Numbered from the stretch's first letter, positions 25,274 through 29,972 are shown. The stretch: 64,000 nt of DNA from an uncultured Gemmatimonadaceae bacterium (GCA_963740355.1 CAVUDW010000002.1:928001-992000); one strand, 5' to 3'. Made by a program: numbers and translations. Notes: generated by a model from the sequence alone, not told the origin.

Positions 25274-27607
25274 CTAGATGCCCACGTTCACTCGCAGTTG
25301 CACACTGCGCGGCCGCCCAACCGACGCACCGCTGAAGAACGCACCCTTCAGCAGGTAGCGCGAATCGAACAGGTTGTCCACGAACAACTCTGGCCGCAGT
25401 GTCACGCCACCGCTGGTGAAGCTGTAGCCGGTGCTGAGGCCAGCGACGAAGTTCGGCTTCACCTTGATGCCCTTGTTGAACGCGAACAAGCCGGTGCCGA
25501 ACGAACAGCCGCAATCCGCCGGGTCGACGCCATTGGTCAGGCCGCTGCCGTAGGTGCCGGTGACGCTCGCAAAGAAGGCGCCCTTCGAGTAGACGGTGTT
25601 GCCGCTGATCGAGACGCGCTGGTCGTGATCGAGGTCGAATTTTCCGTCCGGTGAATCCGTCGGGAAGAAGCCGCCGGTGATGGTGCCGAATCCGTAGGCG
25701 TGATTGATCGCGAGATTGACGTTCGCCGTGAGTGGGCCCTTGGGCCGGATTTCCACCACAGCCTCGAGACCGGTGATGCGCACCTGCTCGATGTTCACCG
25801 CCGTCACGATTGCGGAGCCGGGCACGGTGTTGTCGTCGATGCCAGGAGAGCTCTCCTTGTAGTAGCCGGAAAGCTTGGTCACGACGCCGATCGGGAAGCG
25901 GTGGATGAAGCCCATCTCGTAGAAGTGATCACGCTCGGGCAGCGTCGGCAATGCGGTCACACCAGCCTGCGCCACGCTGGTGATGGCACGGAGGTCTTCC
26001 ACGTTGGTCGGCACGAACAGGCGACCGTAGAAGAGGTAAAGGGTGTTGGCTGCATCGAAGAACAGGTTCAGTCGCACGCGCGGGCTGACCTGCGACTGCG
26101 TCCCTGCGAACGGCGCCGTATGGGCATCGTACCGAATGCCCGTGCGCAGCTCCACATGTTCGTTCGGCGCCAGCGCTGTTTGCGCGTACACGCCTACGTC
26201 GCTGCCAGACAGGTTCGAGTTGGACGCCGGCCCGAACTGGCCCTGCGCATTCGAGGTCAGGAAGTCTTCCTGGCCGGTGGTGAACTGCGTCAACAGGCCG
26301 GTCCGGAATTCGACTTTCTCGCTGGTGCGCTTGGTGAAATCGATCTTCGCGCCGACCGACGTGAAGTTCCGATTCTCGCTCAGGTTGTAGCGATTCGTGT
26401 CGGGAAAGAAGACGAACTGCGGATCGTTGGTGAGCCCTGGGGCGTATTTCAGGCTGCCGTAGCGATAGAACGCCCCGGCGAAGAACTCACCGCCGTGGTG
26501 TGACTTGCCGTCCGCATCCGTGGTTGGCTCGAAGTGGTGCCGCCAGCCGAGGTTGAGGAAGGTGTTGACGTCCGTCTGGCGATCATCCGCGCTGTTGCCG
26601 CCGGCAGAATCGAATGGCACCTGGAACTTCGTTCGTGTCCAGTTGCCCTCGAGATTCACCACGTCCGTGCCCGACGGGTTCCACTGCACCTTGCCGAAGC
26701 CGAACAGGTCCTCGCCATGATTGTGGAAGTTGTACGGACGAAAGGTCACCGTATCGAAGGCCACGGGCTCGCGCCGCATGTCGCTCACCTGCCGCGAGAG
26801 CGCACCGAAGAAGCCGACGGTCCCCTTGTTCGCGCTCGCATTCAGCGACTGACCGCTGGTGTTGAAGCTGCCGCCGAATCCTGATGCATTGAGATGAAAG
26901 TCGCCGACCGGGATCTTGGTCGTGACTTCGATCACGGCGGCGTTCTTGTTGCCGAACTCCGCGTCCCAGCCACCGGTCTTGAAGTTGATCGAGTTCACGA
27001 TCGCGGGGTCGAACAGCTCGTTGAGACTGCCCGACACGCCACTTGGCACCGGCACTCCATCGAGGAAGTACGTGTACTCCGCATGTTGCCCGCGGATGTG
27101 CACTTCACCGGTCGGCGCCCGCACGGCGCCGGCCACCGATTGCTGGATCAGCTGTGACGAGGTTGTCGTGGGCGACGAGTGTGATCGATTCTGGTCGAAT
27201 GATTGCTCGCCGGTGCGCGTGTCGACGGCAATCGGTGCTCCTGCCGTCACCGAAACGCCGGTCAGCTCGAGTGCGACTGCCGCCAATCGCACTCGCAATT
27301 CGATGTCCCTGTCAGCCACGGGAATCGACCGCTCGAACGGGCGGAAGCCGAGCACGCGTACACGCACGGTGTACGTACCCGTCGGCAGGTGATGCGCACG
27401 AAAGTGTCCGAAGGCGTCGGTCAGCGTGCTGATCACGACGCGATCGCCACTCTGCACCGTGACCTGCGCCGACGCGATCGGTGCGCCACGCAAGCTGTCG
27501 GTGACGGTTCCAAACACGTCGCCGCTGACGACGGCAGACGCCGTGCTACTGGCCACGGCCAGCGCCAGCGCCACCGATGCCGCGCGGCAGATCGTGAAGA
27601 TTTTCAT
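25274..27607 (-). CDS. TonB-dependent receptor with N-terminal carboxypeptidase-regulatory-like domain
   Basis: Signal peptide from ATG 27607, GTVTDS...TDAFGHF domain, plug (HIRG...YFLDGVP...TGGWDAEFG), C-terminal NLFDSRY...GRPRSVQLRVNVGI. Confidence 0.9.
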   Translation of the reverse strand: MKIFTICRAASVALALAVASSTASAVVSGDVFGTVTDSLRGAPIASAQVTVQSGDRVVISTLTDAFGHFRAHHLPTGTYTVRVRVLGFRPFERSIPVADRDIELRVRLAAVALELTGVSVTAGAPIAVDTRTGEQSFDQNRSHSSPTTTSSQLIQQSVAGAVRAPTGEVHIRGQHAEYTYFLDGVPVPSGVSGSLNELFDPAIVNSINFKTGGWDAEFGNKNAAVIEVTTKIPVGDFHLNASGFGGSFNTSGQSLNASANKGTVGFFGALSRQVSDMRREPVAFDTVTFRPYNFHNHGEDLFGFGKVQWNPSGTDVVNLEGNWTRTKFQVPFDSAGGNSADDRQTDVNTFLNLGWRHHFEPTTDADGKSHHGGEFFAGAFYRYGSLKYAPGLTNDPQFVFFPDTNRYNLSENRNFTSVGAKIDFTKRTSEKVEFRTGLLTQFTTGQEDFLTSNAQGQFGPASNSNLSGSDVGVYAQTALAPNEHVELRTGIRYDAHTAPFAGTQSQVSPRVRLNLFFDAANTLYLFYGRLFVPTNVEDLRAITSVAQAGVTALPTLPERDHFYEMGFIHRFPIGVVTKLSGYYKESSPGIDDNTVPGSAIVTAVNIEQVRITGLEAVVEIRPKGPLTANVNLAINHAYGFGTITGGFFPTDSPDGKFDLDHDQRVSISGNTVYSKGAFFASVTGTYGSGLTNGVDPADCGCSFGTGLFAFNKGIKVKPNFVAGLSTGYSFTSGGVTLRPELFVDNLFDSRYLLKGAFFSGASVGRPRSVQLRVNVGI

Positions 27608-27641
27608 GATGGGTGTGGTTACGACGCAGCCACGGCTCGGC

Positions 27642-27664
27642 GTCCCGCATGCTGGATGCGGGAC
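27642..27664. promoter_or_regulatory. RNA hairpin in the leader between the uORF and the TBDR
   Basis: Perfect 9-bp stem GTCCCGCAT / ATGCGGGAC with a 5-nt loop, ~35 nt upstream of the TBDR start. Confidence 0.55.
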
Positions 27665-27734
27665 ATGGCGCGGGTGCTGCGAACTGGACGTCGATGCGTT
27701 ACGAGCAAAAGTGCGCGCAACGTCGTGCAACGAC

Positions 27735-28079
27735 TCAGCTCAGCGGTGGCCCGCGGGGTCGGGCGGTGACACTGACGATAGCACGAGATGCGCGTTCGAC
27801 GCTCGACGGCGTGATCGTGCCTGCCGCACGGAGCACATCCGCCGGCGCCGGTACATCGATTGTCGGCACACAGTGCGCTGCGAACTCGCACAGCGCACAC
27901 ATGTCGGGATGCACTGGAATGCAGTGCTCTTCCGAATGCGATTCAACGTGGACCGGCGTGCGAGCCTGCAGGTCCTGTGCGCGCCATGCATCCGCGACCG
28001 ACGCAATGCCTGGCATCGCCATCTGCAACATGGCGAAGAACAGGACGAGGCTGCGGTAGAGCCGGGAACGCGGTGCCAC
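27735..28079 (-). CDS. Leader peptide with signal/TM segment, His-rich CxxC and C-terminal RGPP (DUF2946/CruR/CutF-like)
   Basis: GTG 28079 start, hydrophobic LVLFFAMLQMAMPGIA, HVESHSEEHCIPVHPDMCALC, ends RPRGPPLS-stop, 127 nt upstream of the TBDR. Confidence 0.75.
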   Translation of the reverse strand: MAPRSRLYRSLVLFFAMLQMAMPGIASVADAWRAQDLQARTPVHVESHSEEHCIPVHPDMCALCEFAAHCVPTIDVPAPADVLRAAGTITPSSVERASRAIVSVTARPRGPPLS

Positions 28080-28264
28080 GGAAATCAGGAAGTGGTCTGC
28101 GAGGAACGCGTCGGAACAGCCGGGCTTGGAGCGCGACGAGAGCGAGGCCGCGGGCGATACTGCCCGTCTCCATGCTAACGCGGGCCACAAGGAACCCGTT
28201 GGCCGGCGCCGCTCGTCATACCGGCCTGCCTTGCCTCCGACCGTCCCCCCTGAATGCCGCCCCG

Positions 28265-29972
28265 CTAGCCGTCCAGAGCCGCCACCCGCTTCTCGGCCTT
28301 GAGCAGCCAGAAGATCGTCAGGAAGCTGCACAGCCCAAGTCCAAACACCGCCCCGCGCAGGAACCGCCACCAGTTCAGTGGTTCGTGATACGCGATGCTC
28401 CGGGCATACCAGTACATCGCCGGCGCCATGGCCAGCGCCACCACCATCGTCAACATGCCCGCTGAGAGCAGGAAGAGGATGCCCTGCCAGGTGACGGTCT
28501 GGTTCACCGCCGTCTCGGCATCGAAGCGAGGGTCGATCGAGCCGATGTAGAGCGCCAGCGCTGCCTGCGCGAACATCAGCGATGCCACCGCCATCATCGA
28601 GAGCGCCGTCACGATCGGTGCCGTGCGCAACAGCAGCGAGGTGAGCCCAACGATGCCCACCGCCACCAGCGCCAGCGGCCCGGTGGCAGCCCAGTACTTG
28701 GCGAAGATGATGTCGCGGATGCGCACCGGTGCCGCACGCAGCAGCCACCACATCGTGCCCTCAGCCGCAATCGTCGGCAGCACCAGGCGCGACGTCACCG
28801 CGGCCAGCACCATGCCCGCCAGGCCAACGTTCACGACCGGCAGGATGCTCGTCACTAGCTGCGGCATCGCCCCACCACCCGTCGGCAACACGCTCACACC
28901 CACGACGTAGACCAGCACCAGCGGGATCAACAGCACGAACTGCGACCAGAGCGCGGCGTCGCGTCCCAGTAGGCGCATTTCCTTCAGCAGCAGCTCGCGA
29001 CGCGCGGGCGTCAAGCCGGCCAGCATCAGGTGGAAGGGCTTGGTGATGATCGACGGCGGATGATCGCTGCGGCCCGCGGATCGCACGGCGGAGATGCCCC
29101 GCGCGTAGAGCAGGCGGAAGCTGCCGTATGCGGTGCCCAGGGCGACTGTCGCCAGCAGCCAGAGCCACGCCAGGGGGGCCGGGTCCCAGAAGCCATCGAG
29201 CCAGTTCTTCAACACACGCGCGGCCCACTCGGTCGGCAGCCAGGGTGCCAGCGGCACGTCGAGCATCTTCACCACTTCGCCGATCGCTTTCGTGCCAAGC
29301 TGCGTCAAATGCGCAGGTTCTATCGCGCCGCATCACGTAGATCGCGCCGACACAGAGCCCAAGGCCGATGATGCGGAAGGCCAGCTGTGCACGGGTTGGC
29401 GGCACGAACGCGACCAGCAGGTACACGGCAATGCAGCCGAGCGACGTTGCGGTGAGCCAGAGCGGAAGCCAGGCCGCAAACGCCACCAGTGGCCAGAGAA
29501 TGCCTCCGCCAAAGGCGAAGCCGTACCCAGCCAGCAGCGGCACCACCAGCAGCATCGCAATCGCGCCGCCTTCCACCACGACCTGGAGAAATCGCGAGAT
29601 GAAGAAAGTCGATTGTGGAATCGGGGCCGCGGCGAGCAACTCGAGGTCGCGCGACAAGAAGAACGCCGGCAGCGCCGTCACGATGCAGCTGAGCACCAGC
29701 ACCGATCCAATGCTGAGCAACGACATCGCCAGCACGCGACCGGCAATCGCGGTGCCGATGGAGTCCACGCTCATCAGGTAGTTCAGCACCAGCAGTACGA
29801 TCACGGTGCCGCCTGCCCAAGTCACGCCAAGCGCCGTCAGGATGCCGAGCGGGCCCACTGCGCCTTGCACCTGCCGCTGTCGCCAGAGCGGCTTGAGCAG
29901 GGTGCTGAGTGAGACGGAGTGGAAAGACGAGGGCGGCACCGCGGCTTCCGGTGCGGCAAGAAACTCAGACAC
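28265..29972 (-). CDS. Putative ABC exporter permease (frameshifted near 29328)
   Basis: Two abutting hydrophobic frames (28761..29972 and 28265..29308) join by removing one base (MRAIEPAHLTQ). FFLSRDLELLAAAPI and AEGTMWWLLRAAPV repeats. Confidence 0.8.

Follow-up and report, generated by a model that had tools for sequence, protein, structure and literature searches.

The window analysed here, a stretch of 64,000 nucleotides from an uncultured Gemmatimonadaceae bacterium of soil type, carries on its minus strand a short, unannotated leader gene followed by the gene of a TonB-dependent receptor. In the ORF list the leader peptide makes up the last 114 codons of a 338-aa ORF (27735..28751, minus strand). 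The part of this ORF upstream of the GTG codon at 28079 is, judged from the alignments, spurious and an artefact of the high G+C content, since the homologues align to the last ~114 residues only and the open frames of the relatives are much shorter. The features of the locus were the following, with the basis of each given in brackets.

27735..28079, minus strand: leader gene (uORF), 114 codons plus TGA, GTG start (translation and homologues)
27990..28079, minus strand: putative N-terminal export signal or membrane anchor, leader residues 1-30 (heuristics and AF2)
27888..27950, minus strand: putative metal-sensor core, H44-x-E46-x6-C53-x3-H57-x3-C61-x2-C64 (conservation)
27756..27887, minus strand: 44-residue spacer of the leader peptide, fixed in length and variable in sequence (alignment)
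27744..27755, minus strand: putative RGPP arrest motif, R109-G-P-P112 (motif conservation)
27735..27743, minus strand: two-residue tail L-S and the TGA stop codon (sequence)
28172..28181, minus strand: conserved block GCGTTAGCAT, ~95 nt 5' of the GTG (mafft alignment of upstream regions)
27608..27734, minus strand: spacer between the leader and the receptor gene, 127 nt (stop and ATG positions)
27687..27736, minus strand: stem-loop 1, with the leader stop codon in its base (MFE fold, RNAalifold)
27642..27664, minus strand: perfect 9-bp hairpin within a larger domain, 27625..27681 (MFE fold)
27586..27832, minus strand: C>G region of the transcript, comprising the spacer and the final ~90 nt of the leader (78-nt windows)
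25274..27607, minus strand: TonB-dependent receptor gene, 777 aa (domains and orthologue names)

The leader peptide begins with MAPRSRLYRSLVLFFAMLQMAMPGIASVADAW, the GTG start codon being read as M, and ends with ARPRGPPLS, the RGPP lying two residues from the TGA stop codon at 27737-27735. Its His/Cys cluster reads HVESHSEEHCIPVHPDMCALCEFAAHC; the CxxC within it is C61-A-L-C64, and the spacing from C64 to R109 is 44 residues. At the N-terminus R4, R6 and R9 are followed by a hydrophobic core and then by an A-D-A site. The Kyte-Doolittle maximum was 1.97 at residues 11-25, and 119 of the 132 relatives passed the same heuristic. In the AF2 model a helix was found at residues 6-37 with pLDDT above 90, besides two further short helices, and the rest was mostly unstructured; with a mean pLDDT of 77 and a pTM of 0.49 the model gave no informative fold. 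The export signal is putative, judged by these heuristics and the AF2 helix.

An earlier note on this DNA had described a 114-aa peptide buried in a spurious 338-aa ORF, with a hydrophobic export signal at its N-terminus, a His/Cys cluster with a CxxC and a terminal RPRGPPLS before the stop codon, and had placed it ahead of a spacer and a TonB-dependent receptor gene. The ORF list, the translation and the extent of the homologue alignments agree with the first point, and the cluster, the CxxC and the terminal motif could all be read from the translation. The hydrophobic N-terminus was likewise found both in the Kyte-Doolittle plot and as the AF2 helix, the export function being a prediction. 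The gene order was as described, the receptor gene lying 127 nt downstream.

The block GCGTTAGCAT upstream of the GTG was identical in three loci of the same genus (L001, L002 and L004) and carried one change in a fourth (L003); it is possibly a -10-like promoter element. A consensus scan of 27400..28500 gave no sigma-70 promoter, and no operator palindrome was detected 5' of the leader, this block being the one feature returned. A C-rich, G-poor stretch was observed at 28028..28170 (minus strand), where C minus G rises to +22%, above the 99th percentile of the window; it takes in the presumed 5' leader together with the initial codons of the uORF.

Further upstream lies a permease gene of the ABC_tran_2 family (PF16949; 28265..29972, minus strand) that does not run in a single frame. 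Profile positions 12-186 are matched in 28761..29972 and positions 198-497 in 28265..29308; the two frames overlap, and the change from one to the other falls near 29310-29320, which suggests a pseudogene, a frameshift or an error of assembly. A link between the leader and this ABC-2-type transporter was rejected, as the two are adjacent in the closest loci, L001-L003, only.

The receptor gene and its linkage to the leader

The receptor gene starts with the ATG at 27607-27605 and encodes a signal peptide and an N-terminal CarboxypepD_reg domain (E 6.9e-16). The plug and barrel matches were weak in both Pfam and NCBIfam; the orthologues go by the name of TonB-dependent receptor, and PF00593 and PF07715 were found in relatives with 60-67% identity. 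A comparison with the PDB sequences gave no match at E <= 0.001. No third, bp2921-like gene is present 3' of the receptor gene, the next ORF being located on the other strand.

Across 118 orthologues of the receptor 12 His residues were near-invariant (H72, H143, H170, H175, H238, H295, H297, H357, H496, H569, H636 and H661), as was the pair C699-x-C701. Together these residues may form a direct metal-ion site.

A TonB-type receptor was found directly 3' of the leader in 38 of the 44 related loci, 37 of them by tblastn within 700 nt downstream and one (L035) by Pfam; the set of 44 includes L027, apparently identical to L002, and three loci with less than 300 nt of downstream DNA. In three loci (L007, L011 and L018) the leader precedes not a TonB receptor but a secreted protein of ~435-465 aa without a Pfam family. 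Within the genus of the window both the leader and the receptor were present in the genomes G001 and G017. Neither was found in G005, G014 and G016, which are 94-100% complete, when the leader was searched with the single peptide and the receptor at E <= 1e-20, and G005 and G016 gave no leader match to the A1 profile either.

Conservation and family membership of the leader

A full HMMER scan returned 227 cluster representatives of the leader family at E <= 0.001 (best E 8.6e-42), most of them 112-117 aa long. The motifs were counted in the 151 listed representatives of up to 200 aa. CxxC was present in 149 of these, and the C-terminal motif was RAPP in 129, RGPP in 15 and RHPP in one, with none of the three in the remaining 6. 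The distance from CxxC to RxPP was 43-45 residues in 138/143 representatives, the mode of 44 being the value of the window, and in 117/145 the arrest motif was followed by 2-3 residues. RGPP and RAPP interchange among close relatives, and the same-genus loci L003 and L004 have RAPP.

In the alignment of 133 sequences C61 was invariant, and Q19, D30, H44, E46, C53, H57, C64, R109, P111 and P112 were conserved at >=90%. The strict pattern H-x-E-x6-C-x3-H-x3-C-x2-C occurred in 127/151 representatives, so that the sensor core consists of two His, one Glu and three Cys. Between C64 and R109 the same alignment contained no conserved column. This 44-residue segment is thus kept in length and not in sequence, which points to a molecular ruler rather than to a folded domain. 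The His richness of the peptide, stressed in the earlier note, holds for H44 and H57 and does not extend to H48, H52 and H69, which are not among the positions conserved at >=90% in the 133 sequences. The leader peptide is real and conserved, far beyond chance.

Variants of the second CxxC cysteine were seen in a few members. It is replaced by His (CAFH, CALH or CVLH) in L008, L051, L053, L059 and P0028, and L014 has CAIS, neither Cys nor His at this position; all six retain R(A/G)PP. The pattern C..H was seen in four of the 151 representatives.

The family profile matched 190 of the 401 genomes sampled across the phylum at E <= 1e-4, in 74 of 147 genera; the count takes in the unpublished genome G026. 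A search with the window peptide alone matched 19 of 61 related genomes, or 15 after the removal of 4 spurious hits: L015, L016, L017 and L019 were rejected as leaders, being located inside long unrelated ORFs or containing stops. The records of the related loci and of the receptor orthologues name Gemmatimonadaceae, Gemmatimonadales and Gemmatimonas, a smaller leader alignment gave three named Gemmatimonadales records, and the nearest ESM Atlas clusters of the leader belong to Gemmatimonadota.

The family is conserved as protein between members with as little as ~30% identity. That Cys, His, Arg and Pro should stay invariant and keep their distances over such a span, with a freely varying spacer, would hardly be expected if the leader ORF were untranslated and the region acted as an RNA element, or were no more than an extended 5' leader in front of the receptor gene. 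In favour of an untranslated ORF one may cite the many spurious ORFs of a GC-rich genome, the GTG, which has no Shine-Dalgarno sequence 5' of it, and the choice of an internal ATG (98 aa) as the start in two of the three nearest database homologues, by which the hydrophobic N-terminus is lost. At the start position GTG is shared by L001-L004, the four loci of the same genus, and L028 has ATG. The region 27400..28400 gave no Rfam match at E <= 1, which also speaks against an RNA element, and we consider an untranslated ORF to be scarcely credible.

The same conservation can be read in a different way, namely that the peptide is a stable, exported or anchored metal-binding partner of the receptor (a chaperone, or a factor for ligand delivery) and that the RGPP is incidental. 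The conserved Cys/His/Glu cluster, the putative export signal and the tight linkage to a receptor with 12 near-invariant His and a conserved C-x-C would suit such a partner. However, R(A/G)PP stands within 2-4 residues of the C-terminus in 132/151 representatives, and in many bacterial phyla no four-residue sequence is avoided more than RGPP (PMC12992588). Neither the ruler-like segment nor the AF2 model, mostly unstructured past the N-terminal helix, is what a stable partner would lead one to expect, and CruR and CutF were undetectable as stable proteins (PMC9426467, PMC9973294). A stable partner is therefore quite improbable.

The earlier note had compared the peptide with CruR of Bordetella and had proposed a search against DUF2946 (PF11162). 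The window peptide itself reached 13.7 bits (E 0.11) over profile positions 5-117 of 117, below the gathering score of 23.7. Of its relatives, 59/133 matched PF11162 at E <= 0.01, and 6 of the 51 scanned singly exceeded the gathering score, with 24.1-29.2 bits and end to end; PF11162 was also found on 11-13% of the members of the nearest ESM Atlas clusters. Since the window peptide lies below the cut-off and relatives lie above it, the homology to DUF2946 is transitive and not direct, and the link holds through the relatives. With its predicted export, its Cys/His cluster, its terminal RGPP and its place just before a receptor gene, the window leader is probably a distant member of the CruR/DUF2946 family and no novel type of switch.

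CruR (Bp2923) of Bordetella pertussis is the prototype of Pfam DUF2946, a family defined by CXXC and RAPP; in CruR the RAPP stands three residues from the end and 45 residues separate it from the CXXC (PMC9426467). According to Roy et al. (PMC9426467) the DUF2946 genes usually come first, before genes of TonB transporters or PepSY proteins. The window has the corresponding features: CxxC, a RAPP-like C-terminus, a spacing of ~45 residues, a predicted export signal and a position as the first gene before a TonB receptor. RGPP was counted as RAPP-like because it has been shown to arrest; in the study of Fujiwara et al. it supports arrest in several contexts, and its arrest is the most stable among those of the RAPP-like sequences compared (PMC12992588).

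The window leader is thus, like CruR, a small protein with a predicted export signal, a CxxC and an arrest motif 2-3 residues from the C-terminus, with 44 residues between CxxC and motif as against 45 in CruR (PMC9426467), and it comes first in a unit whose following gene is a TonB-dependent transporter, the spacer being 127 nt as against 162 bp. It differs from CruR in having RGPP instead of RAPP, in its length (114 aa versus 145), in the lack of a bp2921-like third gene and in its host, a member of Gemmatimonadota. A further difference concerns the sensor: the legend of the DUF2946 logo names CXXC, RAPP and one semi-conserved Cys (PMC9426467), whereas H44, E46, C53 and H57 are near-invariant here. 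The DUF2946 hosts given in PMC9426467 are Proteobacteria and a few Planctomycetes, Firmicutes and Deinococcus, and the string 'Gemmatimonad' does not occur in its text and its three searchable supplement files.

The spacer RNA and the start of the receptor gene

The spacer is 127 nt long in the same-genus loci L002-L004 as well, and contains 48 C versus 34 G. Its MFE was -49.1 kcal/mol (z = -1.98), and 5/200 shuffles folded equally well, so the fold is modestly unusual and marginally better than that of the shuffles. The string GCTGAGTCG, which runs across the leader stop codon and forms the base of stem-loop 1, was invariant in five related loci, and the inner stem of this stem-loop showed compensatory changes (RNAalifold, 5 loci). 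The 9-bp hairpin has the sequence GUCCCGCAU/CCAGC/AUGCGGGAC. A hairpin of different sequence recurs at its place (27642..27664) in L002-L004, and for this hairpin the consensus of the five loci contained 3 supported pairs only. No U-tract follows the hairpin, and no intrinsic terminator was detected in 27400..28500.

In 78-nt windows of 27586..27832 C minus G was +8 to +15%, the 95th percentile of the whole window being 14.1; the bias over the 3' part of the leader and the spacer is modest, and is exceeded by that of a patch in the 5' leader. The genome encodes Rho (564.6 bits versus a cut-off of 509). A C>G bubble and a rut site have been described in the 3' part of cruR (PMC9426467), and in both systems the C>G region starts from the 3' part of the leader.

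The tail of the leader and the receptor start were compared in 33 of the 44 loci, those with a choosable receptor start. In the sister family f2 (17 loci: L005, L008, L012, L013, L031, L033, L036, L039, L042, L044, L046, L047, L049, L051, L053, L054 and L059) the leader tail is typically ..CTC TCC TAG/TGA (PPxLS) and pairs with the Shine-Dalgarno sequence of the receptor, (A/C)AGGAGAG. Among the windows of the spacer the last three codons and the stop paired best with the Shine-Dalgarno region in 17/17 loci, and with shuffled tails the observed pairing energy was reached at p <= 0.05 in 15/17, counts that overstate independence since the loci are related. Where the f2 stop is TGA, CA stands directly before GGAG in 6/7 loci and is complementary to UG, the first two bases of the stop codon. 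With its footprint, a ribosome stalled at Pro-Pro would lie over exactly the pairing bases. Under a modelled stall the receptor start became more accessible, with a rise from 0.27 to 0.50 in L013, from 0.32 to 0.51 in L028 and from 0.38 to 0.46 in L042. In the genus g3 it is the R-G-P codons that pair with bases just 5' of the ATG.

The situation was different in the genus of the window, where the receptor start has no Shine-Dalgarno sequence. In the window the pairing of tail and start amounted to -3.9 kcal/mol only, and 87 of the 93 other spacer windows paired at least as well. The unpaired probability of the receptor start was 0.62 in the free RNA and 0.61 under a modelled stall. Since the accessibility of the start was unchanged, no switch is visible in the RNA of this genus. 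The consensus of five sequences, and this alone, contained a long-range helix that joins the stall codons to positions -41..-20, with little covariation. The length of 127 nt and the perfect 9-bp hairpin given for the spacer in the earlier note could be recovered; this hairpin does not mask the receptor start.

These results bear on whether the same leader acts through translation, as CutF and SecM do. In such a scheme the stall would melt an RNA structure that hides the receptor start, and metal might prolong the stall. The pairing of tail and Shine-Dalgarno in all f2 loci, the opening of the receptor start by the modelled stall in L013 and L028 and the pairing of the R-G-P codons in g3 are in line with it, as is the precedent of CutF of Rhodobacter capsulatus, in which a stem-loop shields the cutO Shine-Dalgarno sequence and metal prolongs the stall (PMC9973294). 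However, the pairing of tail and start is absent in the window and its genus, the start of the window is already ~60% unpaired and stays so under the modelled stall, no Shine-Dalgarno sequence is there to be masked, and the helix to -41..-20 shows little covariation and is confined to the five-sequence consensus. For the window a translational output is thus unlikely.

Proposed action of the leader and comparison with known arrest peptides

The 114-aa ORF is probably a cis-acting leader of the CruR/DUF2946 type which controls the downstream TonB-dependent receptor gene. The gene, its conservation, its motifs, their spacing and its linkage to the receptor are established by the present data, and from the analogy to CruR we infer the stalling, the metal sensing, its polarity and the Rho step. 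In CruR the RAPP arrest blocks Rho, and copper sensed via the CXXC relieves the arrest (PMC9426467); toeprinting placed the stall at Pro-Pro, with the two codons in the P and A sites (PMC12992588).

In the proposed model the leader would be translated from the GTG at 28079, and its N-terminal signal or anchor would carry the nascent chain to the membrane. Arrest of the ribosome would occur at R109-G-P-P112, when the codons of both prolines occupy the P and A sites. During the arrest the cluster of H44, E46, C53, H57, C61 and C64 would be 45-65 residues away from the peptidyl-transferase centre, just outside the exit tunnel, where it could bind metal, and metal binding would alter the duration of the arrest. 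The arrested ribosome would occupy the last codons and the stop, at the base of stem-loop 1 and over a C-rich stretch. The arrest would maintain expression of the receptor gene, most likely through a block of Rho like that in CruR, and plentiful metal would release the arrest and shut down the uptake receptor. At this locus a Rho-blocking read-out of the CruR type may be favoured over an unmasking of the start site, since no start masking was found in the genus of the window, a C>G region is present and Rho is encoded. The sensor core and the receptor residues would be compatible with Cu, Zn, Co or Ni.

The leader resembles CutF in several respects (PMC9973294; bioRxiv 10.1101/2025.02.05.636593). 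Both are leaders exported by a Sec-type signal (predicted here) that act in cis (presumably, in the present case) on the next gene, and in both a Cys motif lies ~45 residues from a C-terminal stall motif, which is Pro-rich in CutF. CutF has CxxxC and a PPP-type motif instead of CxxC and RGPP. Its target is a multicopper oxidase for detoxification which copper switches on, whereas the target in the window is an uptake receptor, and its polarity, with metal prolonging the stall, is opposite to that of our model. A spacer structure shielding the Shine-Dalgarno sequence, as in CutF, was found in f2 (17/17 loci) and not in the window. With ApdA, ApdP and the peptides of the 2025 GTDB-wide survey (PMC12992588) the leader shares R-(A/G)-P-P near the C-terminus of a small, here predicted, secretory protein and a downstream gene on the same strand; unlike the window leader, ApdA and ApdP lack a metal motif and serve to monitor protein export (PMC10951233, PMC12992588).

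RAPP/RGPP leaders before TonB receptors have already been published (2022, 2025), and in the 2025 survey the gene classes enriched downstream include the TonB-dependent receptors (PMC12992588). The novelty estimate of the earlier note was too high. The text and the searchable part of the supplement of PMC12992588 do not name Gemmatimonadota, which is not proof of absence. In the searchable part of its RAPP list four sensor strings of the Gemmatimonadota clade gave no match, and three tail or N-terminal strings of the family gave none or unrelated proteins. By its sequence the leader described here belongs to a divergent branch of a known family, one that extends across the phylum and is for the most part unannotated.

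In other respects the earlier note fared well. The conservation of CxxC and RGPP that it had proposed to look for upstream of receptor orthologues was found, as R(A/G)PP at fixed spacing across the phylum, and the host proved to be outside the Proteobacteria, as the records naming Gemmatimonadaceae and Gemmatimonadales indicate. The interpretation as a metal-responsive leader is supported, as far as sequence analysis reaches, by the link to DUF2946 and the conserved motifs. The CruR-type leader can thus be placed in Gemmatimonadota, where it is common, about half of the sampled genomes being matched, and where it is mostly unannotated or called from a wrong start. In the annotation of the window the 114-aa leader gene should replace the 338-aa ORF.

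It is conceivable, although we hold it to be doubtful, that the Gemmatimonadota clade is a distinct sensor subtype of the CruR family for a non-copper metal, with at least two output designs. If so, the extended H-x-E-x6-C-x3-H-x3-C-x2-C site would bind for instance zinc, cobalt or nickel, and the sensor would tune a His-rich receptor. In one design the last codons of the leader and its stop would mask the Shine-Dalgarno sequence of the receptor. The other, that of the genus of the window, would be devoid of a Shine-Dalgarno sequence and have the stop codon embedded in a stem, for which a different read-out, e.g. Rho or mRNA decay, would be needed. The occurrence of masking and non-masking versions in one phylum offers a natural comparison of how a stalled ribosome is converted into gene control, and the six-residue sensor core together with the fixed 44-residue ruler provides a clean set of residues for mutation.

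On five contigs (G387:C2, G264:C22, G059:C184, G197:C131 and G383:C144) two leader matches were observed ~3.6 kb apart, which suggests tandem leader-receptor modules.
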